Shown piece after piece: positions 1 through 28,700 of a stretch of 64,000 nucleotides of DNA (the first letter of the stretch is position 1; every line of letters begins with the position of its first letter). Made by a program: the position numbers and the translations under genes. The stretch comes from Bacillota bacterium. GTDB taxonomy: Bacteria; Bacillota; SHA-98; UBA4971. The DNA lies in contig JBLNDE010000058.1 of assembly GCA_050261335.1 (NCBI GenBank), positions 102,968-166,967 on the forward strand, in the 5' to 3' direction. The notes under the pieces were generated by a model. The model made no database searches. It was given only the letters and a program-made list of their open reading frames with translations, and was not told the origin of the DNA.

Positions 1-94
1 GCGATCGTATATACCTCGCCACGGGGTTCCACGGTACCAGCATTGTCCTGGAGTTCGAGCTGCATGACCACAGGGAGAAGAAGGAGACGAGCCT

Positions 95-412
95 ATGCTG
101 ACCCTGCATGTGTCGTGGTCTGATTGCACCCGCCTGGTTGTCCTGGCCGGAGAGCTGGACATGGAAGGCGCTGCGGCGCTCGAGGAGGCTGCTCTCGCGG
201 GTACCGGGACGGGGCCGGGAACAGGGACCGAGACAGAGCTGGTCCTCGACTTTTCTCAGGTGGATTTCGTGGATTCCACCGGAATGTACTCCCTTGTGCG
301 GATCCACAGGGCCTGGCATGAGCGCGGGGGGCGCGTAACCATGATCAACCTGTCTGACGAGATCTCAGAAGTATTCGAATTGGTAGGGCTGACGGGAGGC
401 GACTTTTCATAA
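95..412 (+). CDS. STAS-domain anti-sigma-factor antagonist (SpoIIAA/RsbV-like)
   Basis: 105-aa ORF with STAS-like sequence (DFSQVDFVDSTGMYSL, conserved Ser/Thr region); AGGAGA RBS upstream of ATG; stop followed 1 nt later by start of phosphatase gene. Confidence 0.8.
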   Translation: MLTLHVSWSDCTRLVVLAGELDMEGAAALEEAALAGTGTGPGTGTETELVLDFSQVDFVDSTGMYSLVRIHRAWHERGGRVTMINLSDEISEVFELVGLTGGDFS

Positions 413-413
413 G

Positions 414-1202
414 ATGGCGACGCTGGCGGGCTTCCAGTCTGACCTCAGCACGCTACAGGGTCTTCAAGACCTCCTGACGCCGAAGTACCTTCCTCAGCTC
501 GAAGGGGCCGACATCGACGGGGCGAGCATCCCGGCCGGGGCCATCGGGGGCGATTACTTTGACGCGAGGGTGGCGCGGTCCGGCGCGCTTTTTATGTGCA
601 TGGCAGATGTGATGGGCAAGGGCCTCCGGGCTGCTCTTCTCAGCCTCAGCCTGCGCAGCGCGTTTCGCTCGGTATTGTGCTACGAGGAACGACACTGTGG
701 TATCATGAACGTTCTGAACCAGGTTGTCGGGGAGGAACTGCGCCGTGCAGGCGCGTTTGCCACCTTTTGCCTGCTCAGCTTCGAACCGGGGGCGAGGAGC
801 CTGGCGTGCAGCAACGCCGGTCACTGTCCGCCCCTGATCTACACTAACGGACACGCCACATACTTTGGAGGTGCAGGGCAGGCTTTGGGGCTCTCCGAGA
901 ATTGCCCGGCACCCGTCGCCGAGACTGCCCGGCTGGCACCAGGGGAGGTTGTGGTGCTCTATACCGATGGTCTTGTGGAGGCCCGGAACCCTCCTGGAGA
1001 GAAGTTCGGAAAAGAGCGGCTGCAGCACGCGGTGGAGGAGTCCGTCGCCCTGCGCGCAACGGAGATCCGGGAGGCCATACTGAGCCGGTTATTCTCATTT
1101 ACCGACGGCCAGGAACAGCGGGATGACATCACCCTGGCGGTTCTCAAGATCAAGGTCGAGGAGGGCGGTGCCAGGCTTGGAGGTTCAGAGAGAGCAACTT
1201 GA
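414..1202 (+). CDS. PP2C-family serine phosphatase (SpoIIE/RsbU-type catalytic domain only)
   Basis: 262-aa ORF with PP2C/SpoIIE motifs (GDYFD, ADVMGKG, DGLVEA, QRDDIT); no N-terminal sensor domain; sits between two STAS genes. Confidence 0.8.
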   Translation: MATLAGFQSDLSTLQGLQDLLTPKYLPQLEGADIDGASIPAGAIGGDYFDARVARSGALFMCMADVMGKGLRAALLSLSLRSAFRSVLCYEERHCGIMNVLNQVVGEELRRAGAFATFCLLSFEPGARSLACSNAGHCPPLIYTNGHATYFGGAGQALGLSENCPAPVAETARLAPGEVVVLYTDGLVEARNPPGEKFGKERLQHAVEESVALRATEIREAILSRLFSFTDGQEQRDDITLAVLKIKVEEGGARLGGSERAT

Positions 1203-1491
1203 CAGTGGGACGATCCTGCGAGTCTCGGGCGAGCTCGACTTCAGTAATGTCCACGACTTGCAGGAACAGATAGAGACCCAGCTTACGGGGACGGTGGAAG
1301 TCGACCTCTCGGGTCTCGCCTTCATGGACTCCTCCGGGATGGGCATGTTGCTCAACGTCGCGAGAAAGCTGGCATCGCGGGGGCAAGTGCTGAGTGTAAC
1401 CAACATCCCCGTCGAGATCCGCGAAAGCATGGCGCTGGTCGGCTTTTTCCACATTCTGGGGGACCTCTTCCCTGAGAGCCGGGCGGAATGA
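1177..1491 (+). CDS. second STAS-domain anti-sigma-factor antagonist
   Basis: STAS-like sequence (LSGLAFMDSSGMGMLLNV); ORF opens at 1123 but overlaps the phosphatase; in-frame TTG at 1177 preceded by GAGGAGGGCGG is the likely start; stop overlaps ATG of next gene (ATGA). Confidence 0.7.
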   Translation: MEVQREQLDSGTILRVSGELDFSNVHDLQEQIETQLTGTVEVDLSGLAFMDSSGMGMLLNVARKLASRGQVLSVTNIPVEIRESMALVGFFHILGDLFPESRAE

Positions 1492-3335
1492 AGATGGTGT
1501 CATCGATGTCGGATCCCTCTGCGATCGCTTCAGCAAATGATGGCGGTGAGGCGACAGGGCCTGTGGCCTGGGTGACGGGGGGCCAGGTATACGTAAGGCA
1601 CGAACCAGGCGGTCCGTACCCTGTGCTCAAACCCGGCCCGGGCGTGGAGTTGTATGTCAACGGGCGCCGCTGTGGCGATCCTGCTCTGGTCACGATGGCC
1701 GACTCGGTGGAAGTGCGTGGTGTAGACGAGACCGTCGCGGGGAAATGGGAGCTAAACGTGAGCGACGACGGCATGGCAGCCGCTCTCAGGGTAAGCCCGC
1801 GCATCGTCACGAGACGCACCATCCGCGACTTGCCACCGTCGCCCATTCTGGAGCTTGTCGCCGAAGAAAGCAGGGAGTACCTGCCTCCTGCTTCCCTGGA
1901 GCAGATCCTGGAGGCCATGCAACAGCATGGAATCGTGTTCGGTATCGACGAAGCTGCGTGCCGAGAAATGGCCCGGTGCGCCGACGAGAGGGAGCTGACC
2001 GTTGCCAGGGGTGTGCCGCCGGAGGCCGGCGTGGACGGCAGGGTCGAGATCCTGTTCTGGCCGGAGGCCAGAAGGCCCCTGAGCAAGACGAATGAACACG
2101 ATCGTGTCGATTTCCGCGAGCGGTTCCAGTTCACCTCGATAGAGCCCGGAACCGTGCTGGCCCGAAAGGTGCCGCCGACACCTGGGAAGCCGGGACGAGA
2201 CGTCTTTGGCAGGCTGGTCCCGCCTCCGCCGGCCAGGAGCATGGAGATCGTGGTGGGCAAGGGGGTCGTCCTGAGCGCCGACGGCATGGAGGCCGTTGCC
2301 GTCCGCTCCGGTCGCCCTGTCGCGGGTCGGCAGGGTGAGGGTGTGTACCTGGCGGTTCGAGAGGTCCTTGCGGTCGATCATGATGTCGGCATAGAGTCAG
2401 GGAACGTTGCTTTCCGGGGAGACGTCCACATCACGGGGAACGTCCTGGAAGGGATGATGGTCAGAGCGGGCGGTCACGTCATCATCCGTGGATATGTGGC
2501 CGGCGCCACCGTCCGCGCCGGTGGCGGGGTTCTCATCTCCGGCAATGTCTTTTCCTCGCAAGTGACCGCCGGCGGCGCGTCCTCCGCCGCCCGCGAGGTG
2601 GCTTCGGTGCTGCGGAACATACAGAGCCGGTTGGGTGATCTATTGGCCGCCACCGACCAGGTGCAGCGGCATCCGGCCTTTCGCCAGGCCGACCTCCGGG
2701 ACGGCCCGGGACCGCTATTGCGGCTCCTCCTGGAACGGAAGTTCCGCGATCTTCCGTCTCTGGTGCGGGTTCTCGGGCAGGCTGTCAAGCTTTTGCCGCC
2801 TGAGATGTGGGATGAGGAGCTGTCGGGGCTGTGCCGCCAGTTGGAGATAGCGCTGGTTTTCTCTCCCATGACGGTGAGGGACGTGAGCTCACTCAGGCTG
2901 CTGGCCGCAGCCGCCCGGGACATGGAGGCAGAGTTCGGGCCACACGACGGCGAGGGCACCGATCTCGTGGTCGGGTACGCGCTCAACTCCACGCTGGCGA
3001 GCGCCGGCGCGGTCAGAGTGGTAGGTAGCGGCTGCTACAACACGCGCATTCTGGCCGGGGCGGGAGTGGTCATCGTTGGCAGCTGCAGGGGAGGGGAGGT
3101 GGAGGCGGGAGGCGATGTCGTTGTCGGCGAGCTTGGATCTCAGGCCGGCGTGAAGACGTCGGTGAGGGTCCCACCCGGCTCAAAGGTCACGGTAAGGCTG
3201 GTCTGGGAGCACGTGCAGGTTCAGGTGGGTCACCAGGCCCACCGCTTCGATCGGCAGGCAAGAAACGTGCGCCTGGCCCTCGACCGCGAAGGAAAGCTCC
3301 GGTTGAGCCGGGTTCGAAGGCTCGCGGCATGGTGA
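1488..3335 (+). CDS. FapA-like / DUF342-family protein (flagellar-assembly-protein-A-like, beta-helical repeats)
   Basis: 615-aa ORF; N-terminal region resembles DUF342/FapA (IVFGIDEAA, GTVLARKVPPTPGKPGRDVFGR); central hexapeptide-like G-N-V/A-G-G repeats typical of this family; translationally coupled to upstream STAS gene. Confidence 0.65.
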   Translation: MKMVSSMSDPSAIASANDGGEATGPVAWVTGGQVYVRHEPGGPYPVLKPGPGVELYVNGRRCGDPALVTMADSVEVRGVDETVAGKWELNVSDDGMAAALRVSPRIVTRRTIRDLPPSPILELVAEESREYLPPASLEQILEAMQQHGIVFGIDEAACREMARCADERELTVARGVPPEAGVDGRVEILFWPEARRPLSKTNEHDRVDFRERFQFTSIEPGTVLARKVPPTPGKPGRDVFGRLVPPPPARSMEIVVGKGVVLSADGMEAVAVRSGRPVAGRQGEGVYLAVREVLAVDHDVGIESGNVAFRGDVHITGNVLEGMMVRAGGHVIIRGYVAGATVRAGGGVLISGNVFSSQVTAGGASSAAREVASVLRNIQSRLGDLLAATDQVQRHPAFRQADLRDGPGPLLRLLLERKFRDLPSLVRVLGQAVKLLPPEMWDEELSGLCRQLEIALVFSPMTVRDVSSLRLLAAAARDMEAEFGPHDGEGTDLVVGYALNSTLASAGAVRVVGSGCYNTRILAGAGVVIVGSCRGGEVEAGGDVVVGELGSQAGVKTSVRVPPGSKVTVRLVWEHVQVQVGHQAHRFDRQARNVRLALDREGKLRLSRVRRLAAW

Positions 3336-3519
3336 GCGCAGGCCTCCTCGATCTCTCGTGCGAGGTCGCACCTGTTGGGACGACCTCGCTCCATGCCCTG
3401 GTTGGGCCGGCCGTGCCGTCCGCGGTTCGGGAGGCGGCGTTCGTCCGCAGGCCTCGATCGGTGCGGGCAAGAGCTGCCTCGCTGTCATCCATCGGTAGCC
3501 TCACCAAAATGCCCGTCCG

Positions 3520-3548
3520 GAGATCCCAACTTGTGTGATACAATCTCA
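3520..3548 (+). promoter_or_regulatory. candidate sigmaA promoter with extended -10 (TGTGATACAAT) upstream of the NhaC-like gene
   Basis: Sequence cttgtgtgatacaatctc; located ~100 nt upstream of the predicted start. Confidence 0.35.
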
Positions 3549-3641
3549 TTGCGGTGCGCCCGCTGTGCCGGGCGAGTGACGCCCGATTCGGGATGGATCG
3601 GGGTGGCTGGGAGGTTACGGAGCGTGCGCAGGACTTTCTCG

Positions 3642-5243
3642 GTGGCAGAGGCATCGTTCATTCTCGCCGGAATTGTGGTGCTGCTTGCCATATCCATTGC
3701 TGTGCTACTCATACCTGCGTACTGGCCCCTGTTCACGGCGCTGTTCGGGTGCGTGTGTCTGGCCTTGCGCCGGGGGTTCCCTCTCAGCGCGGTGCTGGAG
3801 ATGGCGCGCGAGGGCGTCGGGAAGGCGATGGTGCCGATCTGGATGCTGGCGCTCATCGGCGCGCTGATGGGCCTGTGGCGGCTCAACGGGACGGCGGCGA
3901 CCATAGCCGTCTATGGCAGCCCCCTGGTGAGCGCGAGGCATTTCGCGCTCGGAGCTTTCCTTTTGTGTGCCGTGGTTTCCATGGCCATGGGGACTGCCAA
4001 CGGCGCGGCGAGCATAATCGGCCTCCCGCTCATGATGGTTGCACAGGCGCACCGACTGCCGCCCGGATTCATCGCCGGGGCCGTGGTCTCCGGCATTTAC
4101 CTGGGCGACCGCTCATCGCTGGTGTCGAGCGTCCTCCACATGGTCTCGCGCCTGACCGGGAGCGAACCCCGGGCAGTGTTCCGCCGGCTTGCGGCAACGC
4201 TGGTTCCTGCAGTGGCGCTGTCAGCGCTGCTATACTGGCTCGGCGGCCCCGGCCCCGCGGACAGCGGCAGGGGGGGTGCGTCCCTCTCCGCATCCGCCCC
4301 CGTATCCGTAACCGCGGTCGCATCTGCGTCTGCACTGGGACCTCCACCCGGGCGAGCAGACGCACAGGTGTTTGCGCCTGTAGCTGCACGTGCGTTTTCA
4401 CCTTCACTTTCACCTCCACCTTCGCCTTTACCTGAACCTGCGCCTGGGCCCGGGCCGGGCTCTGCCTCCGCCCCCGCTTCGTGCTCCGCGTCTGAGCCTC
4501 CACCGGCATCAGGATCGCCCGCCATCCTCGATGCTCTCAAACGGAGCGGCGGCGTTTCGCCCGTTCTTTTGCTCGCCCCGGCTTGCATGATGATCCTGGC
4601 CGCTTTCAGGGTGCCGATCCTCACGAACCTCTCCCTGAACGTCCTGGTGGCCGCGGCCGTTGCCATCGTTGCACAGCGCGCGTCGCCCGTCATAGTGGCT
4701 CGCACAGCCCTTCTCGGGCACCACCCGCCCGGCACTGCGGCTCTGGCCGCCGTAACAGCCGGAGGCGGGCTCGCGTCGATGGTCGGCGTCCTGCTCGTGC
4801 TGATCTCGTCAACCGCCCTGTCGGGCGTCCTTGTGGGGACCGGGATCTTCGACGCCGCCCTCGGGAAGTGGCTTTCGGGCCTTGCGAGCCCACGCAGGAT
4901 CCTCCTTGCCAGCATGGGCTTCAGTATCGCAACAGGCATGGCCGCAGCGAATCAGGCCATCTCGGTGGTACTTCCGTGCACGCTGCTCGAACGTGTCTAC
5001 CGCGAGAAGGGGATGCCCGGGCTTGCCCTCGCCCATGCGGTCTCAGACTCCGGCGTCATAGTCGCGCCGCTCGTCCCATGGAGCGTGGCAGCGCTCGGGC
5101 CTGCTGCGATCCTCGGCGTTGCGCCCGCCGCGTACCTGCCGTACGCGTTTCTCTGCTGGACGCTTCCCGCGGTCTCGGTTGCGTGGATCCTGCTGAGAGA
5201 GGCTACTTACGCCCCGCGCCTCGCGGAGGCACGCCGGCAATAG
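3642..5243 (+). CDS. Na+/H+ antiporter NhaC-family membrane transporter with internal low-complexity linker
   Basis: Multi-TM protein resembling NhaC family; ORF opens at 3375 but the hydrophobic core begins at in-frame GTG 3642; ~90-aa Pro/Ala/Ser/Gly-rich insertion between the two halves. Confidence 0.6.
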   Translation: MAEASFILAGIVVLLAISIAVLLIPAYWPLFTALFGCVCLALRRGFPLSAVLEMAREGVGKAMVPIWMLALIGALMGLWRLNGTAATIAVYGSPLVSARHFALGAFLLCAVVSMAMGTANGAASIIGLPLMMVAQAHRLPPGFIAGAVVSGIYLGDRSSLVSSVLHMVSRLTGSEPRAVFRRLAATLVPAVALSALLYWLGGPGPADSGRGGASLSASAPVSVTAVASASALGPPPGRADAQVFAPVAARAFSPSLSPPPSPLPEPAPGPGPGSASAPASCSASEPPPASGSPAILDALKRSGGVSPVLLLAPACMMILAAFRVPILTNLSLNVLVAAAVAIVAQRASPVIVARTALLGHHPPGTAALAAVTAGGGLASMVGVLLVLISSTALSGVLVGTGIFDAALGKWLSGLASPRRILLASMGFSIATGMAAANQAISVVLPCTLLERVYREKGMPGLALAHAVSDSGVIVAPLVPWSVAALGPAAILGVAPAAYLPYAFLCWTLPAVSVAWILLREATYAPRLAEARRQ

Positions 5244-5602: not shown

Positions 5603-6916
5603 ATGATCAGAAAGGCAGCGATGAAAGCACAAACAGGGTCAATGGCCACGCGCATTGCGCGGGCGTTCGCAGGCAATTTCGGCCGGATTCGAGGAAACGC
5701 CAGAGCCATCCTGCTTCTCGAACCCATGTGGGCCATACCCTTCAGCATGTACAGCGTCTATGCCAGCCTGTTCATGCGGGAACTCGGCCTCACCTCGCAG
5801 CAGATCGGCCTTCTGGCCTCGGTGGGCATGGCGAGCACGATTCTGAGTTCGGGCGTCTCCGGCTATGTCACAGATCGGCTCGGGCGGCGGCGGACAACCC
5901 TCATCTTCGACATGGCGTGCTGGTCGGCCTCGACGCTCGCCTGGGCCACTGCGCACGGTTTCTGGCAGTTCTTCCTGGCGGCTGTCCTCAACGGGTTGCA
6001 GGCCGTTCCTATGACATCCTGGACATGTCTGCTCGTGGAGGATAGCGACCCGCACGACCGGCTTCCCATTTTCACGGCCCTGCAGGTGATAACCGTAGCG
6101 GCGTCCTTTGCCACCCCTCTTGCGGGGCTGGCTATCCGGCGCTACGGGGTGGTGACAGGCACCCGGGGCCTGTATCTTTTTGCCTTCATCAGCATGACCA
6201 CGATGTTCCTGCTACGCAACCACCTTACGCGGGAGACCCGGGTGGGCCATGCCCGGAGGAGCGCCACGGGCTCGCATGGATTCCGGGAGTCGCTGAGCGA
6301 ACATGGCGGCGCGCTCCGTTCGATGCTGCGACACCGTGAGGCCCTCACATACTTCCTCCTTGCGGCAATTGTATGGTTCCGCGACAGCCTCACCCTGCCG
6401 TTCGGGCAGTTGCTGCTGGTTGACCGCCTGGGGTTGCCAGGCGACATCCTGGCGACGTTTCCCGCCCTGGGCGCCGTCGCAACGCTTCTGGTATCGGCGT
6501 TCGTCCTGCCAGCCCTTGCGCGGCACGAGGGCGCGGGGATCCTGGGTGGCCTGGCCTTGTCCGGGGCGTCCACAGCCATACTGCTCTGCGTGCCTCGCGG
6601 CAGCGTGGCCGGCGTGGTGGTGAGCAGCGTCGTCGGAGCTGCCGGCGCCGCGATGTTCGTGCCGGCCCTGAACACCGGATGGAACAACTCGCTCTCTGAC
6701 AGCGGGAGAGCGCAGATCCTGGCCATGTCCTCCACCACCTGGGGCCTAGCCCGCCTTCCGGCAGGCTGGATCGGTGGGCAGCTTTACGCCCTCGCGCCGG
6801 TATCGCCCTTTTACGCCGGGCTCGCTCTGACCGTGGCTGGCATGGCCCTGGTCTCCTTGCGGGCGATGCGGACGGCTCCCCACGCGAGATCCCCCCGCAG
6901 CGAGCGTGCGATGTAA
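5603..6916 (+). CDS. MFS-family transporter
   Basis: 437-aa ORF with 12 predicted TM segments and MFS signature-like motif (GYVTDRLGRRRT); alternative ATG at 5621. Confidence 0.75.
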   Translation: MIRKAAMKAQTGSMATRIARAFAGNFGRIRGNARAILLLEPMWAIPFSMYSVYASLFMRELGLTSQQIGLLASVGMASTILSSGVSGYVTDRLGRRRTTLIFDMACWSASTLAWATAHGFWQFFLAAVLNGLQAVPMTSWTCLLVEDSDPHDRLPIFTALQVITVAASFATPLAGLAIRRYGVVTGTRGLYLFAFISMTTMFLLRNHLTRETRVGHARRSATGSHGFRESLSEHGGALRSMLRHREALTYFLLAAIVWFRDSLTLPFGQLLLVDRLGLPGDILATFPALGAVATLLVSAFVLPALARHEGAGILGGLALSGASTAILLCVPRGSVAGVVVSSVVGAAGAAMFVPALNTGWNNSLSDSGRAQILAMSSTTWGLARLPAGWIGGQLYALAPVSPFYAGLALTVAGMALVSLRAMRTAPHARSPRSERAM

Positions 6917-7101: not shown

Positions 7102-7539
7102 GTGACGGACTCGCGCGATTCGGATATGTCGCGGGAGACCGCCCCGAAGTACGTGGCGACCAGTATACCGCTCACGTACGATGACTACTGCCGGAAGCCG
7201 CCTGGGCAGAGATACCAGCTCGTCGAGGGGACCTTATGATGGTGCAGTCGCCAAACGTGTTTCATCAGGAGACCTCCGGCAGGATAGGGGATGCTCTGCG
7301 CCGGTGGATCCATGGCAACAGCTTCGGCAAAGTGTACCATGCCCCCGTCGACGTGGTGCTGGGGGAACACAACGTCTTCCAGCTGGGTGGTCGATCCCGA
7401 AGCTCGGAGCGTCGAGGCGGCCGCCCACAATGGGCATGAGCTTGCCACTGTGCAGGTCTATCCGCGCGGAACGTCGCTTGAGACCCCCTTTTTGCCCGGG
7501 CTTGCGCTGCACATAGACGGGCTTTTCCGTGAAGAGTGA
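7102..7539 (+). pseudogene. Uma2-family (DUF820) endonuclease remnant, frameshifted and internally deleted
   Basis: Three frames carry consecutive pieces of a Uma2-like protein: ...IPLTYDDYCRKPPGQRYQLVEGTL* (stop at ~7237), then MMVQSPNVFHQETSGRIGDALRRWIHGNSFGKVYHAPVDVVLGEHNVFQ, then ...WVVDPEARSVEAAAHNGHELATVQVYPRG...LPGLALHIDGLF; the central PD-(D/E)xK segment appears missing. Confidence 0.55.
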
Positions 7540-7670
7540 ATGGTATAGGGGTTTCGCCGGCCGTTTTCGGCTTCCTTTCGTGGTGTATAATGTACGTGGG
7601 CCGCTCGAGTCCAACGGTAAGACCCTGCGTGTCGTTTCGAGAGACAACGGCCTGGATGGGAGTTGGTAGC

Positions 7671-8153
7671 ATGCCACGGCCGCCCAAGTGCAGGCGAGTG
7701 GAGTTCCTACCCGAGGTGACTGTATTCAAGCCCGCCGGCGTTCCCATGCGCGGGCTCCGGGAAGAGGTGCTGACCGTCGAGGAACTGGAGGCCGTCCGCC
7801 TGAAAGACCTCGAGGGACTCGAGCAGGAGGAGTGCGCCGAAAGGATGCAGGTCTCGCGGCCGACCTTCCAGAGGGTTCTCGTGTCTGCAAGGGAGAAGAT
7901 CGCAAGGGCCCTGGTCGAAGGCATGGCCATTCGTGTGCAAGGCGGCACCTACCGTCTCGCCTCGCGCACGTTCCAATGCCGAGCCTGCGGCCACGAGTTC
8001 GAGGTGTCCTTTGGCACCGGTCAGCGCGGGATCGACATGACCTGTCCACAGTGTGGGGCTGGCGAGGTTCATCGCACCGACCAGGACGGTCACGGGTCCG
8101 GCAACATGCCCTGGGGTCGCCGCGGCCGGGGGTGGGAGCGGGAGCGGGAGTAG
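7671..8153 (+). CDS. DUF134-family protein with C-terminal zinc-ribbon (CxxC...CxxC)
   Basis: [70 protein letters not shown] matches DUF134 (UPF0251); GGGAG RBS before ATG 7671; C-terminal CRACGHEF...CPQCG. Confidence 0.7.
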
Positions 8154-15886: not shown

Positions 15887-18658
15887 TCACACTGCCTTCA
15901 TCGAGTTCCCCCAGCCTTCGGGCAGAACCACCAGTTTGCAGCATTCGCCGGGGTCGAGGGCGACGTCGACGGAGCCTCCGGACGCCGCTTGGGTGCGCGC
16001 AGCCTCCCATCGCCCGTCCTTGCCGAGACAGGCCGCTTCCACTCTCCATGGGCGCCTGAGGTGGGCGGCGGAGGTGAGGTCCACGGTGCCCTGGAACCGC
16101 GTGGACGTCGGGTTGTACACCAGCACCGACCGGGGCGCGTCCTCGTCCATGAACGGGCGGTCCCAGTCGAGAAGGTCGAGGTAGACCGTGGTTATCGACG
16201 GGTCCGATGCCCTTGCGAATGCCTCGAACATGAGATACAGCCACAGGACCTCGCCGGCGCCGTATATCTCCTTGCCCACGTAACCTGTGGAGTCTGGTAG
16301 TTCCAGCGTGCCGATGTTCTCGTAGGGGATGTGGGGGCAGGCCGCTCCTGTCCGCTCCGGCTCCGGCAGGAAGGGATCGAAGTAGTAGAAGTTATTGCGG
16401 CGCTGAAGGTCCAGGACCCTGAGGAGGGCGGGGTTGAAACCGCCTTTTTTCAGCAGCGGCAGCCATGGCAGCACCGACTCGACGTTCTCCTTGAACGCAG
16501 GGTAAAGGATGGACGCGCATGCCTGGAAGAGGCCACGCGTGTGATACGCGCCGCGGCTTCGCGCGAGGTCATCGTACCAGTAAAGCATCCGCAGCTCGGC
16601 GCGGATGAGGTCATGAGAGATGCGGGCGAGGGACGGGTCGTCGAGGAGCGACGAAAGCTCGAAGGCCGCGAGCGCCCCGAACGCGAACTGCTGAGGCTCG
16701 TGGTACAGGAGGTCGAGCGGCAGCCTGATCATGGTCAGGAGGGCGTCCCTCGCCTCGCCCAGGAACTCCTCACGCCCGCTGAGGCGGAACGCGAGGACCG
16801 CGCCGTAGGCGTAGAGCCCGGCCACGGAGTAGTTCGTTCCCGAGTCCGCCGGCATACCGGTCGCAGGGTCGTAGAAGAGAGGGAAGACGTGGCGCACGTT
16901 GTGGGCGTAACGCCTGGCGCTCTCGAAAGCCGCCATGAACATGTTCGCGAGCTTCGCCGTGTCAGCCGCGGGGGGTGTGAGGCGGTGCGATTCCTGAAGT
17001 ATCTGCCATGCTTTTACTGCCTGCTGTGTCTGCTGTGTGTTCGGCGTGCGGGGCGCATGCGGCGCATGCGGCGCGTGCAATGCGCACAGTGAAGGCGGCA
17101 TCCGCCGCGCCGCCTGCTGCGCAGCCCGCTCACGCGTCTTCTGCGCCGCCTGCGACATCTCCAGGAGGTGCACGATCCACGGCCACTTGATGAGGCCATT
17201 CTCGAAGGAATACCACGTATCCACTTTCTCCTGGCCGTGCGTGTGCGGGTAGTTGTTGCTGATGAAGCCGATGTCCTCCCGGAAGAAGTGGGGGAGGGTG
17301 GCCGTCAGGCGGCGAAGGTACTCGAGCAGAGCCGAATCCGGGCCTGCGCTGACCCCCCGGGGCGCGTCGATCCCAGGGCCTCTCTCGCACGGGTGCTGCA
17401 GGCAGGAAGCGGGCTCACCGTGGCGGGCGGGTGCGGCCGCATCTTCGGATGAGGCGGCGGATCTGCCGGGCTCGCTTGCGCGGGCGTAGTGCAGGAGGGG
17501 CCAGAGCACGTCTGCCTGCGTCATCAGCTCGAACGACCGCGGCTCCGCCCACTGACGCGAGCTCGAGCGCACGTATGCGGGGTGACCCCAGATGCCCTCC
17601 ACCTCGGTCTGGCATGCTGGGTCGTGCATGAGCTCATCCAACGCCGCGCCGGCCACTTCCGCCCAGGAGCCACGTGGAAGGCGTCCACTCCGGCGCCCCT
17701 GCGACCGAGGCCCGAGTTCCGGCTTCTCATCGCCGCCGAGGAGCAGCGAGGCGGCGTCGATGAGCGTCGCGAGGGCATCCCACTGCGAAGGGATGTCCTG
17801 GCGGTGGCGCTGGTAGATTGAGTATCGGAAGACGTGGTCGCCTGCGGGGAAGACCCGGCCGTGGTAGTGGTCTGCCCAGAGCCCCACGCCGAACCGCTCC
17901 TTGCGCGGCCCGCCGAGCTTGCTTGAGCACAGGCAATCCTCGAACCTTGCCAGACTCGCCCGGGACATCCATGTCATGCAGGTCATGTCGAAGTACAGGA
18001 CGACCTCGGCACGTCGGACAGGGTCGTAGCAATACACGGCGGGGAAGTCGTTGCCCCGCACGCCGGTGCAGTTCCTCGTGGGGTTCGAGATGACGACCCT
18101 GCGCCACTCGTGGTTCTGGCGCTCGTTCATGGTGGCGTACTCTGACATCCAGAGGACTATCTCCGGCTCGATGGACGGGGATGGCTGAAGGACCAGCGGC
18201 CTTTCGAGGTGGACGGCGACGGACACGTGGATCCACGGGTCGCCGGGCGTCACGGAGACTTCGGCGTCGAACGGGTACAGGGCTTTGTCGACATCGCGAA
18301 GACCCTCCGCGTCCGTCGCGCAGTATTCGGGGTTGCGCGGGGCGGCGCCGTCTTTCGGCACGCATCCCGTTCCGGTCCCTGAGAAGAGGACGGCCTGCCG
18401 TCCGTCGCCGCGTGAGGGAGCGATGGTGTATGAAGACGGCGCAAGGTCGAAACTGGCCCCGCCCACGAGGACGTTGGGAAGGCCGGCGACAACCGTCCAC
18501 CCGGCTCCGTCGTGCACGCGGGTTGTGAAGCGCAGTCTACCGTCGTCCCCGCGCCTGAAGATCATCTGTTGCCCTGACGCGGTAACGACCGGCCCTGACG
18601 GCGTGTCGTATATGGCTGTGTCGCGTTCGGACAGACCTGGGAGGTCGCGGTCTTCCAT
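15887..18658 (-). CDS. large hypothetical protein (~920 aa), possibly a novel carbohydrate-active enzyme
   Basis: Long ORF with AGGAGG RBS before ATG 18658; immediately downstream of the LacI regulator and upstream of the sugar ABC transporter and glycosidase on the same strand; no confident family assignment from sequence alone. Confidence 0.55.
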   Translation of the reverse strand: MEDRDLPGLSERDTAIYDTPSGPVVTASGQQMIFRRGDDGRLRFTTRVHDGAGWTVVAGLPNVLVGGASFDLAPSSYTIAPSRGDGRQAVLFSGTGTGCVPKDGAAPRNPEYCATDAEGLRDVDKALYPFDAEVSVTPGDPWIHVSVAVHLERPLVLQPSPSIEPEIVLWMSEYATMNERQNHEWRRVVISNPTRNCTGVRGNDFPAVYCYDPVRRAEVVLYFDMTCMTWMSRASLARFEDCLCSSKLGGPRKERFGVGLWADHYHGRVFPAGDHVFRYSIYQRHRQDIPSQWDALATLIDAASLLLGGDEKPELGPRSQGRRSGRLPRGSWAEVAGAALDELMHDPACQTEVEGIWGHPAYVRSSSRQWAEPRSFELMTQADVLWPLLHYARASEPGRSAASSEDAAAPARHGEPASCLQHPCERGPGIDAPRGVSAGPDSALLEYLRRLTATLPHFFREDIGFISNNYPHTHGQEKVDTWYSFENGLIKWPWIVHLLEMSQAAQKTRERAAQQAARRMPPSLCALHAPHAPHAPRTPNTQQTQQAVKAWQILQESHRLTPPAADTAKLANMFMAAFESARRYAHNVRHVFPLFYDPATGMPADSGTNYSVAGLYAYGAVLAFRLSGREEFLGEARDALLTMIRLPLDLLYHEPQQFAFGALAAFELSSLLDDPSLARISHDLIRAELRMLYWYDDLARSRGAYHTRGLFQACASILYPAFKENVESVLPWLPLLKKGGFNPALLRVLDLQRRNNFYYFDPFLPEPERTGAACPHIPYENIGTLELPDSTGYVGKEIYGAGEVLWLYLMFEAFARASDPSITTVYLDLLDWDRPFMDEDAPRSVLVYNPTSTRFQGTVDLTSAAHLRRPWRVEAACLGKDGRWEAARTQAASGGSVDVALDPGECCKLVVLPEGWGNSMKAV

Positions 18659-18662
18659 GGAG

Positions 18663-19898
18663 TCATGCCTCCGTTTCGTTTGTCGGCTCGGACGTTTCGC
18701 CGCCCGCCGTGCCACTCGTGGCGGATGCAGGCATGGCCACCGTACCGCGCGTCATGAGCGTCGCCCGGATCACGATTTTGATCGGGGCGGGGTCGACCCC
18801 GTTGATGATATCCACGAGCCTGCGGGCGGCGATGGAACCAAGCTGCTGCTTTGGGATGTGCATCGTTGTGAGCGGGGGGTGGGTGTGGCTCGCCACCTGT
18901 ATGTCGTCGAACCCGATGACGGACACTTCGTCCGGCACCCTGATGCCGCGCTCGTGGAGAGCCTTGAGCACACCGAGCGCGGTCATGTCGTTGTCCGCGA
19001 ATATGGCGGTTGGCGACTGAGGCAGGTCCATCAGACGGAGCGTTCCCTCATATCCGATCTGCGGGCCATGCGTGTCAACGGACTCGGAGAACACCACCAA
19101 TCTACGATGGGACGGCAGGCGAAGTTCGTCAAGGGCCTTCGTATAACCAGCATAACGCTGCGCAAGGGAGATGTGCGACTGCGGCCCACCGACGAAAGCG
19201 ATCCGGCGGTGGCCGGAGCGGTATAGGTGCTCTATCGCAGACCTGGTCGCGGCCTCGTTGTCCGAGACCACGCAGTCTACAGGCTCGCCCGGAAGCTCGT
19301 TATCCACGAGGACCACCGGGATCCCACGCTCGCGGGCTGTCCGGGCCACCTGCGGGTGAACGTCGCATCCCACGAGGAGCAGTCCTCTGAAGCCGCTGCA
19401 GCCGTTCTCGCCTGCCTGATCAGCGAAGAGACCGCTGTTATCGCCGGCGCCGTCTATGCTTCGAAGGAAGACCCGGTAGCCCAGGTTCTGCAGGCTTTCC
19501 TCGATGCCCGCCACTACTGCGCCGTAGAACGGGTCGGTCACCAGGGACGAAAGCCGCCTGTTGAATACGATGCCGATGCTTGCGCTCAAGCCTCCAGACA
19601 CGCCGGCGCCCGCACCCACACTCGCGCCCGCGCCGCCGCCACTGCCACTGCTACTGGCGCCGCTGTTGCCGCTGCTATTGCCGGTGCTATTGCGGCCGCC
19701 GCCCGCGCCGTGCCATGCCCTGGGCCCCGTAGCCGCGTCCACCGCCTCCGCGCGTGGACGGTAGCCCAGTGACCGCGCTACGTTCAGGACGCGGGAACGG
19801 GTCCGCTCGCTGATCCGCCCTTTCCGGCTGAGGGCTCGTGATGCCGTGGAAGGCGAGACTCCGGCCTGCCTCGCGATCTCTCGAATGGTCGTGTCCAC
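18663..19898 (-). CDS. LacI-family transcriptional regulator with Gly/Ser-rich insertion
   Basis: N-terminal HTH (MDTTIREIARQAGVSPSTASRALS) and periplasmic-binding-fold C-terminal domain; ~60-aa G/S/A low-complexity insert after the HTH. Confidence 0.85.
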   Translation of the reverse strand: MDTTIREIARQAGVSPSTASRALSRKGRISERTRSRVLNVARSLGYRPRAEAVDAATGPRAWHGAGGGRNSTGNSSGNSGASSSGSGGGAGASVGAGAGVSGGLSASIGIVFNRRLSSLVTDPFYGAVVAGIEESLQNLGYRVFLRSIDGAGDNSGLFADQAGENGCSGFRGLLLVGCDVHPQVARTARERGIPVVLVDNELPGEPVDCVVSDNEAATRSAIEHLYRSGHRRIAFVGGPQSHISLAQRYAGYTKALDELRLPSHRRLVVFSESVDTHGPQIGYEGTLRLMDLPQSPTAIFADNDMTALGVLKALHERGIRVPDEVSVIGFDDIQVASHTHPPLTTMHIPKQQLGSIAARRLVDIINGVDPAPIKIVIRATLMTRGTVAMPASATSGTAGGETSEPTNETEA

Positions 19899-23950: not shown

Positions 23951-24487
23951 ATGGTCTTCCCAGCGGACTCGAAATGGGCGCACTGTCCAGACAGGGGGTG
24001 GACTGTTACGTTCACGTCGACTACATATACAATCGCTATTGTGTTTTTCCTCATCTCATTCGCGAAGGACCGCGACAGGACCCGCACGGCCTTACGTAAG
24101 TCCCTCGCCGCGTTTCTCGGTATCCTTCCTGACTTCGCGGCGGTGCTGGCCGTTGTTGGGCTTGTTCTGACGTTCCTGTCCCCGACGACAGTGGCCGGAC
24201 TCATAGGGGCGGGGACCGGGTTTGTCGGGATGATCATCACCTCGCTCATAGGCGCCGTCACCCTGATCCCGGGTTTTGTCGCTTTCCCGCTCGCTAAGTC
24301 CCTCCTTGAACGCGGCGCCGGGATCGCCCAGATAGCAGTGTTTGTGTCCACGCTCATGATGGTCGGCTTTGTGACCGCACCTCTTGAGATCCGCTACTTC
24401 GGCAGGAAGGTCACGCTCCTCAGGAACGGTCTCGCATACCTGTATTCCTTCATAGTGGCCTTCATCATAAGGGTGGTGGTTAAGTGA
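23951..24487 (+). CDS. permease (DUF318/PF03773), first subunit of a split two-component membrane permease
   Basis: Hydrophobic multi-TM ORF; stop overlaps GTG start of second half (GTGA); true start may be downstream of 23951. Confidence 0.6.
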   Translation: MVFPADSKWAHCPDRGWTVTFTSTTYTIAIVFFLISFAKDRDRTRTALRKSLAAFLGILPDFAAVLAVVGLVLTFLSPTTVAGLIGAGTGFVGMIITSLIGAVTLIPGFVAFPLAKSLLERGAGIAQIAVFVSTLMMVGFVTAPLEIRYFGRKVTLLRNGLAYLYSFIVAFIIRVVVK

Positions 24488-27461: not shown

Positions 27462-28700
27462 GTGGGCACGGCTCGAGGTTTGCTACGTGAGTCAAGGATC
27501 TTCTCATCCGACGTTTCCGGGATTGTGTGGCGCAGCCTTGACTGCTTGCTTCAAAGGAGGGGCGGAGCGGCGATTGTGCTGGTGCTTCTGCTGACGGTCG
27601 CATGTTCCGTCCCAGGCCGGGCCGCGCTGGTCGCGGGCTCCCTTGCGGTGCTGGCCGGATGCGTCCGCGGCGGAGCGCGCAGCGGGCTTGCCTTCGCGGC
27701 GATCACGGTGGTGGCGGCCGGCGCTTGCGGGGTTGTGCGGTACGGCGCCCTGCCTGGCGGTCTTCTGCTAGATGCCCTGGTGCTTGTTTCATTCGCCACC
27801 GTCTTCGGGAGCCTCGTGGACTCCACCCGCAGCCGTGTTGCACTTCCCGTTGAGGAGCCGGAGGGGCGACAGGCGTACGACGCTCTCGTGAACCTCATGC
27901 AGGAGGGAATGGTCCTGGTGGACCTCAAGGAGAATATCGTCTTCGTCAACAGCGCTTTCGCGCACATGCTCGGATATGCCTCCGACGAGCTGGTCGGCAG
28001 GAACCTCGCGGAGCTTACCTCGCCGGACCAATACCGGGTTTACAGGGAGAAAACGAAGCAGCGTAAGAAGGGGCGCTCCGACAGATACGAGTCGAAGATG
28101 TTCAGGAAGGACGGCGAGGTCGTGGACGTTCTCGTCTCGGCGACGCCGTTCGTTGCGTCGGACGGGACTGTGAAAGGCACGATAGGGGTCTTCTGGGACA
28201 TCACCGATCGCAAGAAAGAGGAAGAGGAACTCAAGTACCTGAGCACGCACGACGGGCTGACCGGCGTGTACAACAGGGCCCACTTCGAACATGAGATGAA
28301 AAGGCTCGACGCCGAGCATTACCTTCCGGTCTCCATGATAATGTGCGATGTGGACAACCTCAAGCAGGTGAACGACGCCCACGGCCATGCGGCCGGTGAC
28401 CACACACTGAAACGGGCCGGAGAGATCGTGCGGAGCGCCGTCCGCGCGTCCGACATCGTAGCGCGCATCGGCGGGGACGAGTTCGCGGTTCTCCTGCCCT
28501 ACACAAACGCCAACGCCGCCAGGGCCATCCGCGAGCGGATCCGTCAGCGCGCGGCTCTCGCAAGCGACCTCCTGACCAGCCTGTCCCTCGGCGCAGCGAC
28601 CAGGGACAGCATGAACATGAGCATGGCGCAGCTTTTCAAGGGCGCCGACGACGCCATGTACGTCGAGAAGCCCAAGTCAACCCGCGCCTATGCGACATGA
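27462..28700 (+). CDS. membrane-anchored PAS-GGDEF diguanylate cyclase
   Basis: N-terminal TM segments, PAS-like region, intact GGDEF active site (RIGGDEFAVLL) with RxxD I-site (RASD); exact start uncertain. Confidence 0.75.
   Translation: MGTARGLLRESRIFSSDVSGIVWRSLDCLLQRRGGAAIVLVLLLTVACSVPGRAALVAGSLAVLAGCVRGGARSGLAFAAITVVAAGACGVVRYGALPGGLLLDALVLVSFATVFGSLVDSTRSRVALPVEEPEGRQAYDALVNLMQEGMVLVDLKENIVFVNSAFAHMLGYASDELVGRNLAELTSPDQYRVYREKTKQRKKGRSDRYESKMFRKDGEVVDVLVSATPFVASDGTVKGTIGVFWDITDRKKEEEELKYLSTHDGLTGVYNRAHFEHEMKRLDAEHYLPVSMIMCDVDNLKQVNDAHGHAAGDHTLKRAGEIVRSAVRASDIVARIGGDEFAVLLPYTNANAARAIRERIRQRAALASDLLTSLSLGAATRDSMNMSMAQLFKGADDAMYVEKPKSTRAYAT

Follow-up and report, generated by a model that had tools for sequence, protein, structure and literature searches.

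A putative sigma-independent partner-switching cassette joining two STAS proteins and a PP2C phosphatase to a DUF342/FapA-family protein in Bacillota

Partner switching is a textbook mechanism, known mainly through the sigma-B and sigma-F systems; to our knowledge, no target has been identified for most of the forms that work independently of sigma factors (SypA, HsbA, BtrV, RbaV). Here we analyse a cassette at the 5' end of a 64,000-nt stretch of DNA from a Bacillota bacterium (GTDB lineage SHA-98; UBA4971; assembly GCA_050261335.1, contig JBLNDE010000058.1, positions 102,968 to 166,967 of the forward strand), hereafter the window, in which the end of a kinase gene is followed by genes for a STAS protein (STAS1), a PP2C/PPM serine phosphatase, a second STAS protein (STAS2) and a DUF342/FapA-family protein. 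We propose, giving it a little less than an even chance, that this is a sigma-independent partner switch in which the phosphorylation state of the STAS proteins controls a MinC-like DUF342 scaffold and/or the hydrolysis of cyclic di-GMP (c-di-GMP).

Several described systems resemble parts of this arrangement. In Pseudomonas aeruginosa, phosphorylation of Ser56 determines whether HsbA partners with FlgM or with the cyclase HsbD, and the HsbA kinase/phosphatase is under the control of a receiver (REC) domain (PMC5085249). Chlamydia trachomatis possesses two STAS antagonists, RsbV1 and RsbV2, together with one kinase, one phosphatase and no sigma-B (PMC8256260), and in Anabaena the PP2C/STAS phospho-switch HenR/All4160 acts directly on a non-transcriptional effector, a glycosyltransferase (PMC13555669). 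The founding DUF342 protein, FapA of Vibrio, is summarised in PMC6877527 (citing Park et al. 2016, 2019) as binding only dephosphorylated EIIA-Glc, with a role in polar flagellar assembly and binding to HubP. The text quoted from PMC9237108 describes minimal rsbRSTX modules in many phyla that feed non-sigma outputs, some of them via RsbU_N domains, and takes RsbU_N as the docking site for RsbT. Non-sigma partner switches are already known, and the cassette, with HD-GYP and DUF342 proteins, adds a variant and not a new category. A literature search that left subscription journals mostly outside its reach returned no account of such a cassette, nor of DUF342 tied to STAS, PP2C or partner switching.

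All four open reading frames (ORFs) of the operon that the original prediction had described from the DNA are present at 95-3335, with Pfam scores far above the curated cut-offs; NCBIfam agreed with Pfam at the superfamily level for the four proteins and named no equivalog. The kinase had been taken as absent from the window, which proved incorrect, as the codons for its last 32 residues occupy the first bases. The features of the cassette and of its 3' flank are the following.

3-101, + strand: 3' end of the kinase gene, last 32 codons and stop, RsbW/SpoIIAB-like HATPase_c_2 domain
95-412, + strand: STAS1, 105 aa, single STAS domain (Pfam STAS_2 E 5e-16, STAS E 2e-12)
414-1202, + strand: PP2C/PPM serine phosphatase, 262 aa, catalytic domain only (Pfam SpoIIE E 4e-41)
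1177-1491, + strand: STAS2, about 104 aa, single STAS domain (Pfam STAS_2 E 1e-18)
1488-3335, + strand: DUF342/FapA-family protein, 615 aa (Pfam FapA_N E 4e-44, FapA E 7e-24), last gene of the cassette
3360-3389, + strand: GC-rich inverted repeat read by eye (GCGAGGTCG, 12 nt, CGACCTCGC), 25 nt 3' of the DUF342 stop; possible terminator hairpin, lacking a T-tract
3536-3544, + strand: extended -10-like TGaTACAAT, 3' of the inverted repeat, probably for the next gene

The cassette frames appear to be coding, since GC content is higher at codon position 3 (0.71-0.76) than at position 2 (0.45-0.49). The junctions are as tight as first described: the kinase stop (99-101) and the STAS1 ATG (at 95) produce an overlap of 7 nt, a gap of 1 nt separates STAS1 from PP2C, PP2C and STAS2 overlap, and STAS2 and DUF342 share the 4 nt ATGA. 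The STAS2 frame is open from an ATG at 1123 to 1491, with alternative starts at GTG 1168 and TTG 1177; one of the latter two (104-107 aa) is most likely the true start, rather than ATG 1123, because of the GGAGG just 5' and the start positions of the orthologues. A consensus scan 3' of DUF342 called neither a terminator nor a promoter, so the hairpin and promoter assignments are of low confidence.

As a stand-in for the DNA 5' of the window we used L001, a Bacillota metagenome-assembled genome (MAG) found by genome scan, whose cassette DNA is 94.8% identical to window 10-3349; a contig look-up by exact sequence (window DUF342, window PP2C and the 100%-identical protein P0001) gave no match. 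Bases 3-101 of the window, in frame 3, translate to ...DRIYLATGFHGTSIVLEFELHDHREKKETSLC*, a conserved HATPase_c_2 C-terminus that aligns to the C-terminus of the kinase encoded at L001:6710-8614 and to those of four other kinases, with the consensus DR[IV]YLATG..GTS[IL][IV]LEF shared with the stand-alone kinases of L003, L005 and L006. The L001 kinase is a protein of 634 aa with Response_reg, PAS and HD_5 domains followed by a C-terminal HATPase_c_2 domain. Its HD_5 domain (E 8e-38) contains the motifs LLHDIGK and HHERMDGSGYP and is on that basis of the HD-GYP type.

The core [HD-GYP]-kinase-STAS1-PP2C-STAS2-DUF342 is shared among spore-forming Clostridia and was found in six lineages with unrelated flanks and with DUF342 identity to the window protein falling as low as 38%. 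Besides the window lineage (window and L001), the loci are as follows.

L003/L004: HD_5 (L003), HATPase_c_2 kinase, STAS, SpoIIE, STAS, DUF342 (DUF342 57-58% identical)
L005: HD_5, HATPase_c_2 kinase, STAS, SpoIIE, STAS, DUF342 (57-58% identical)
L006: HATPase_c_2 kinase, STAS, SpoIIE, STAS, DUF342, the contig ending 5' of the kinase (57-58% identical)
L010, Desulfofundulus salinus: kinase, STAS, PP2C, STAS, DUF342 (45% identical)
L011, Moorella sp. Hama-1: HD_5, kinase, STAS, PP2C, STAS, DUF342 (39% identical)
L013, rearranged: dCache-GGDEF-HD_5, kinase, STAS, STAS, Jag_N-DUF342, PAS-GAF-PP2C, REC (38% identical)

All intergenic distances are at most 76 nt in every lineage, and the STAS2-DUF342 gaps outside the window at most 50 nt. 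The components diverge in parallel, the identities between window and Moorella being 52% for the kinase domain, 42% for STAS1, 41% for PP2C, 51% for STAS2 and 39% for DUF342. Collinearity between the window and L001 stops 14 nt past the DUF342 stop. Gene content, order, coupling and conservation across lineages can be read directly from these sequences, as can the intact motifs and the lack of a linked sigma factor described below. The co-occurrence of DUF342 with STAS/PP2C pairs, which the original prediction had proposed to check, is seen in these six lineages. That DUF342 might be an unrelated neighbour of an ordinary STAS/PP2C operon draws on the existence of distant DUF342 genes that occur without switch genes; given the synteny of the sampled loci, this explanation is effectively refuted and retains next to no probability, as the linkage persists while both flanks differ, the STAS2-DUF342 junction is close everywhere, and the breakpoint between window and L001 falls just past the DUF342 stop. 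DUF342 thus does not behave as an unrelated passenger of the kinase, STAS and PP2C genes, and chance adjacency is not tenable on this comparison.

Two observations concern relatives that lie beside this comparison. A 0.9-kb internal cassette piece in L002, considered as a third close relative, was left unused as evidence: L002:9466-10363 (a Clostridia MAG contig of 72 kb) corresponds to window 960-1849 at 91% identity with unrelated sequence on both sides, spans mid-PP2C, STAS2 and DUF342 to codon ~121, reads DSSR in place of DSSG in its STAS2, and is either what remains of a decaying cassette or a chimera created in assembly. An MpsC-family (PF10057) gene lies just 5' of the DUF342 gene of L012 (L012:2415-2771) and another at the head of the L013 cassette (L013:4453-4809), so MpsC is a possible additional recurrent companion of DUF342.

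Among the annotated proteins of the window, none encoded in the 37 kb that follow the cassette is a sigma factor, in agreement with the original prediction that none lies downstream. Likewise, no Sigma70-domain protein was found in the 8.6 kb upstream of the L001 cassette and no sigma factor adjoins the cassette in L005, L006, L010, L011 or L013; in L003 an ECF sigma factor lies 8 kb from the cassette, behind unrelated genes. As also anticipated, the arrangement is not that of canonical sigma-B or sigma-F: the ~95%-identical L001 has the REC-PAS-HD-GYP-kinase gene upstream and no sigma gene nearby, and there is no rsbW-sigB or spoIIAB-sigF pair immediately upstream (judged in L001) that would make this an ordinary sigma-factor operon. 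The cassette shares with RsbU/V/W-sigma-B and SpoIIE/AA/AB-sigma-F of B. subtilis the D-S-[ST]-G STAS proteins, the HATPase_c_2 kinase, the PPM/PP2C phosphatase and the overlapping genes. It differs from them in lacking a sigma factor in the operon or nearby, in a kinase that is the C-terminal domain of a large protein far below the SpoIIAB cut-off, and in having two conserved STAS paralogues together with HD-GYP and DUF342.

The kinase domains score 33-38 bits against Pfam HATPase_c_2 (cut-off 27.4) in L001, L003, L005 and L006, and their N, G1 and G2 boxes (EALTNxxKH, DxGPG and GSGF/GCGF) are conserved across the orthologues. Their closest curated family is SpoIIAB anti-sigma F, or the RsbA-type anti-sigma family in the case of L010 (E 1e-6 to 1e-8), and the window STAS proteins score against anti-sigma-antagonist models. 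These matches would suit an anti-sigma system acting in trans, in which the kinase sequesters a sigma factor encoded elsewhere and DUF342 and HD-GYP are accessory; trans-acting, non-canonical targets are documented, for example in the proposal for Chlamydia RsbW (PMC8256260). We nevertheless consider such a system very unlikely, as the kinases reach 27-33 bits against the SpoIIAB equivalog (NCBIfam TIGR01925), which has a cut-off of 135, and are multidomain proteins of 413-634 aa instead of the ~140-160 aa of free anti-sigma factors, and no sigma gene is linked to the cassette in the six lineages, in all of which DUF342 is.

In the other lineages the kinase is a stand-alone protein, encoded at L005:937-2193, L006:243-1484, L010:6352-7623, L011:6362-7609 and L013:6991-8268. 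These proteins have a conserved N-terminal region of ~290 residues with CxxC-x6-10-CxxC, a beta-rich segment and a PAS-like block reading ...FDLHGxPFD..GGxLAxDITE. No Pfam or NCBIfam model matches the region (for Pfam even at E<=1), and it may be a sensor module that has yet to be described. For the beta-rich segment a PilZ-like identity, suggested by the c-di-GMP link, was discarded, because there is no Pfam match at E<=1 and DxSxxG is not kept. In the window lineage REC-PAS-HD-GYP replaces the whole region, and the linker AYREAIxAVTGGRL is kept.

Upstream of its kinase gene, L001 has an unbroken string of overlapping genes, in this order.

First: RsbR-like protein (RsbRD_N + STAS, by Pfam)
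Second: RsbS-like STAS protein (by Pfam)
Third: RsbT-like HATPase_c_2 protein (by Pfam)
Fourth: RsbX-like PP2C (SpoIIE, by Pfam)
Fifth: RsbU_N-HisKA-HATPase_c histidine kinase, with an intact H-box (SHDLRAPL)
Sixth: single-domain receiver (by Pfam), followed by the REC-PAS-HD-GYP-kinase

All four components of a minimal stressosome, rsbR-S-T-X, are thus found in one gene string (L001 2935-5246), and the acidic pockets of the receivers are intact. No receiver or stressosome was found near the L003/L004, L005 and L006 cassettes. The L001 string resembles the Vibrio vulnificus type of rsbRSTX module in PMC9237108, having rsbR-S-T-X and then a two-component output with an RsbU_N kinase, and departs from it in that the two-component output is followed by a second complete partner switch ending in DUF342; the quoted text of that paper lists no such downstream architecture.

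Both STAS proteins retain the features expected of partner-switching substrates. STAS1 has the motif F-V-D-S-T-G and STAS2 F-M-D-S-S-G, the serine of D-S-[ST]-G being kept in 14 of 14 STAS copies from seven loci. The STAS1 serine presumably corresponds to Ser58 of SpoIIAA and Ser56 of RsbV, B. subtilis references that we use as guides only. A search of the Protein Data Bank placed the FMDSSG of STAS2 on the FMDSSG of Geobacillus SpoIIAA (1th8_B), and entry 1tid represents an FMDASG variant at this position. STAS1 is the orthologue of the STAS protein that follows the kinase in every lineage, and the STAS2 gene is always directly 5' of the DUF342 gene. A neighbour-joining tree separates STAS1 from STAS2 as two clades of orthologues, so their duplication is older than the sampled lineages; the two antagonists flanking one phosphatase, as first noticed in the window, are real and ancient, and a system with two STAS antagonists has a precedent in Chlamydia RsbV1/RsbV2 (PMC8256260). 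That RsbU-RsbV1/V2-RsbW system is alike in its two STAS proteins per kinase and phosphatase and in the lack of sigma-B (PMC8256260). Its genes, however, do not form one cassette with DUF342 and HD-GYP, and sigma-66 or a metabolic protein has been proposed as its target; in the present cassette the two STAS genes both belong to the operon and form ancient orthologous pairs.

Two peculiarities of the STAS genes were also seen. In the window and L001, STAS1 has an insertion of ~8 residues rich in Gly, Thr and Pro (AGTGTGPGTGTETE; window 188-235, residues ~32-47), which lies in the loop after helix 1 and is missing from the orthologues of other lineages. In L003 (8724-8945 and 9706-9984) and likewise in L004, the N-termini of both STAS proteins are disrupted, with frames that open mid-domain and the 5' part in another frame; the disruption occurs in an NCBI MAG and in a Logan assembly, possibly of the same sample, and could be pseudogenisation or a shared sequencing error.

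In the PP2C the SpoIIE domain covers residues 57-246 of 262 and no second Pfam domain is present. Its metal-ligand motifs GGDY, DVMGKG, YTDG and RDDIT (RDDxT) are intact and invariant in five orthologues, and its identity to the PP2Cs that occupy this place in the Desulfofundulus and Moorella cassettes is 41%. In the five lineages in which it was examined the phosphatase lacks a sensory domain, so it would need an external activator. On this basis DUF342 could be the input and not the output of the switch, activating or tethering the PP2C (as RsbT does with RsbU) or the kinase, so that the level of STAS phosphorylation follows from how DUF342 itself is assembled or localised, with a free STAS protein acting on an unlinked target. 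Such a role would also suit L013, where the PP2C has PAS-GAF sensors of its own and sits outside the STAS pair, and STAS-only outputs with unlinked or obscure targets, SypA and RbaV, are documented (PMC8256260). We regard it as distinctly unlikely, since the terminal place of DUF342 in the operon and its translational coupling to STAS2 more commonly mark a target or partner, and the PP2C has no RsbU_N-like docking domain.

The DUF342 protein matches FapA_N (PF20250) with 150 bits (cut-off 27), residues 88-279 covering profile positions 2-175 of 178. Its match to the FapA solenoid (PF03961) scores 85 bits (cut-off 31) but is confined to profile positions 1-79 of 272, as it is in all sampled full-length relatives. 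AlphaFold2 models had a predicted local distance difference test (pLDDT) score of 80.3 over the full-length protein and, for residues 296-615 modelled with 61 sequences, of 88.9. In the models an N-terminal beta domain is followed by the FapA_N alpha/beta domain, a beta-solenoid (~300-361), a helical bundle of ~120 residues (363-483) and a C-terminal beta-solenoid (493-608). No solved homologue was found by sequence (phmmer against 1hf2 gave E 0.18). The best Foldseek matches of the C-terminal half were C-terminal domains of MinC, with 1hf2_D at the top (E 0.025), then 4v02_D (target-normalised TM-score 0.58), 5xdm and 6riq; none was at or below 1e-3. Pfam MinC_C (PF03775) did not match the window protein; relatives reached ~20 bits against a cut-off of 33.2, and they also gave sub-threshold or precomputed Pfam matches to MinC_C and bactofilin.

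Relatives of the DUF342 protein are numerous: HMMER retrieved 9,084 at E<=1e-3 and 668 at E<=1e-30 from a library of 1.84 billion proteins, and the best 150 representatives align nearly all end-to-end at 28-46% identity. A total of 148 listed representatives were aligned with the window protein, excluding the 3,620-aa multi-repeat protein P0113. A homologue search with a profile of 13 sequences added one protein; seeding with the next-closest representatives gave a useful expansion that included proteins of cultured Clostridia such as Desulfofundulus, Carboxydothermus, Moorella, Pelotomaculum and Thermanaerosceptrum. A metagenome scan from one alignment produced one distant locus only. Roughly 50 of the 148 representatives (e.g. 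P0024, P0031, P0033 and P0220) begin with Jag_N, the start domain of Jag/KhpB-type proteins. The full-length relative P0141 (817 aa) is an HD_5-DUF342 fusion of the HD-GYP type, and P0117 (987 aa) is a fusion with a GT4 glycosyltransferase. Fusions of DUF342 to REC, STAS, PP2C or kinase domains were not found among the 148. The existence of both HD_5-DUF342 and HD_5-kinase fusions ties HD-GYP, kinase and DUF342 together independently of gene order.

Vibrio FapA has the same FapA_N and FapA domains, and its availability is likewise set by one phospho-form of a small protein (PMC6877527, in the summary cited above). The differences are that its regulator is the His-phosphorylated EIIA-Glc, where the cassette would use a STAS protein phosphorylated on Ser, and that the window protein matches the FapA solenoid model over 79 of 272 positions, with no flagellar or HubP context seen. 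Anabaena HenR/All4160 is alike in combining a PP2C and STAS switch with a non-transcriptional effector (PMC13555669); in Anabaena STAS domain and glycosyltransferase form one fusion protein, in the cassette the STAS proteins stand alone and DUF342 is the candidate effector. The GT4 fusion P0117 may be compared with the Anabaena glycosyltransferase.

HD_5 accompanies the cassette in five of the six lineages, as part of the kinase protein in the window lineage (L001) and as a separate gene directly 5' in L003, L005, L011 and L013. Its nearest curated model is a c-di-GMP phosphodiesterase family, so the enzymatic role is a predicted one. This raises an alternative in which the true output is second-messenger turnover, the STAS proteins and kinase domain regulating the HD-GYP phosphodiesterase and DUF342 being a c-di-GMP-responsive effector or localisation scaffold. 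The complete HHERMDGSGYP of L001, the dCache-GGDEF-HD_5 counterpart in L013 and the fusion P0141 are all in keeping with it, as are a PAS-GGDEF cyclase gene in the window (27462-28700), distant DUF342 genes beside GGDEF/EAL/ComFB or REC-cyclase genes, and the activation of the cyclase HsbD by phosphorylated HsbA (PMC5085249). However, L010 has no adjoining HD gene (a PocR-GAF-HD_5 gene, which comes closest, lies ~2 kb downstream of DUF342), GYP reads GYL in several HD orthologues, including L003 and L005, and no c-di-GMP-binding motif was identified in DUF342. We hold this alternative to be unlikely, though far from negligible, and it overlaps with the partner switch proposed here and is not strictly exclusive of it.

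The P. aeruginosa HptB-HsbR-HsbA pathway is alike in its receiver-controlled multidomain STAS kinase, its choice of partner by phospho-state, its c-di-GMP enzyme and its motility/biofilm decision (PMC5085249). HsbR is REC-PP2C-kinase with one STAS protein, whereas the cassette has REC-PAS-HD-GYP-kinase, a separate PP2C and two STAS proteins; the former acts on a cyclase and FlgM, the latter has an enzyme of the phosphodiesterase type and a linked candidate target, DUF342, in a Gram-positive Clostridia host.

The sigma-independent partner switch that we propose would operate as follows. The kinase domain would phosphorylate the D-S-[ST]-G serine of both STAS proteins and the sensor-less PP2C would remove the phosphate, the phospho-state setting the binding partner of each STAS protein. 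STAS1, whose gene is coupled to that of the kinase, would be the antagonist and substrate of the kinase, as RsbV is for RsbW. STAS2 would bind or release the DUF342 protein according to its phospho-state and so control whether a MinC-like beta-solenoid scaffold is available, where it is localised or whether it assembles, HD-GYP being in the same complex. In the window lineage the signal would pass from the stressosome via RsbT to the RsbU_N-histidine kinase, the receiver(s), the kinase/HD-GYP protein, STAS1/2 and finally DUF342, a path that appears likely from the fusion of the kinase to REC-PAS-HD-GYP and from the upstream rsbR-S-T-X, RsbU_N-kinase and receiver genes. Each step has a precedent in HsbA (PMC5085249), Chlamydia (PMC8256260), Anabaena (PMC13555669) or Vibrio FapA (PMC6877527), and the output of the switch is probably non-transcriptional.

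Several points weigh against this proposal. The protein-protein interactions, the distinct roles of STAS1 and STAS2 and the effector role of DUF342 are suggested by synteny and motifs, and gene order is what points to DUF342 as the output as opposed to a scaffold, an input or a c-di-GMP co-effector. The original prediction that the switch controls a cytoskeletal or assembly protein accordingly stands in part: the weakly MinC-like solenoid fits it, and the placing of DUF342 at the output end comes from gene order only. The resemblance to MinC is consistent but weak, being sub-threshold in every test, and does not amount to family membership. About seven genomic contexts were sampled. The stressosome and the REC-PAS-HD-GYP fusion are extrapolated to the window's own genome from the ~95%-identical L001. 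The substitution of GYL for GYP in several orthologues leaves the substrate of the HD domain uncertain. The full-length DUF342 gene of L012 (37% identity) has no switch genes 2.8 kb upstream or 8 kb downstream, and the distant DUF342 genes of L007 and L008 are also without partner-switch genes, so DUF342 proteins do not universally need a partner switch. Finally, a sigma factor encoded in trans elsewhere in the genome is a possible partner.

The neighbours of the distant DUF342 genes deserve mention in their own right. In L007 (9499-9780) the gene is flanked by REC-PAS-GGDEF, EAL and ComFB genes, and in L008 (10479-11807) a REC-guanylate cyclase gene lies beside it, which hints at a broader link of DUF342 to nucleotide second messengers.

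Beyond the cassette, the next 37 kb of the window contain transporters, peptidases, tsaE/tsaB-like genes and the single PAS-GGDEF cyclase; flagellar genes were not seen in the annotated part of the window, and a PADLOC defence-system scan returned only a trivial HD match. The ORF at 3375-5243 encodes an NhaC-type antiporter with two separate stretches of family match, the listed match covering only the C-terminal third (~387-604), after an Ala/Ser/Pro-rich low-complexity segment (~300-385), and its true start is probably well downstream of 3375. Both this gene and an MFS gene (5603-6916) are missing at this position in L001. The DUF134 protein encoded at 7536-8153 has a C-terminal CxxC zinc ribbon and a sub-cut-off helix-turn-helix resembling sigma-70 region 4; it appears to be a small DNA-binding regulator and not a sigma factor, and is kept near the cassette in L001 (20944-21844). 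Two further ORFs have a strong coding signature and no Pfam match at E<=1e-6, one of 942 aa at 15887-18715 on the minus strand, with a LacI-family regulator on one side and an ABC sugar-transporter operon on the other, and one of 178 aa at 23951-24487 on the plus strand.

A more ambitious interpretation, which we consider rather unlikely at present, is that the cassette represents a new class of partner switch, in which two dedicated STAS proteins couple environmental input, in this lineage from a full stressosome and a two-component relay, to the assembly or localisation of a MinC-like DUF342 beta-solenoid scaffold, together with HD-GYP, as a spatial output reached post-translationally and bypassing transcription. 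If true, this would provide the first regulatory logic for the large and obscure Firmicute family of DUF342/Jag_N-DUF342 proteins, and the stressosome would gain a defined non-sigma end-point. The candidate target is encoded in the operon itself and is kept from Moorella to Desulfofundulus, so that the question could be tested with a few purified proteins. The cassette would offer a first regulatory handle on DUF342/FapA proteins, which neighbourhood and one fusion link to c-di-GMP enzymes, and in this lineage, an apparently complete wiring from a stressosome to a non-transcriptional end-point, which bears on the widespread rsbRSTX modules outside the Bacillales.

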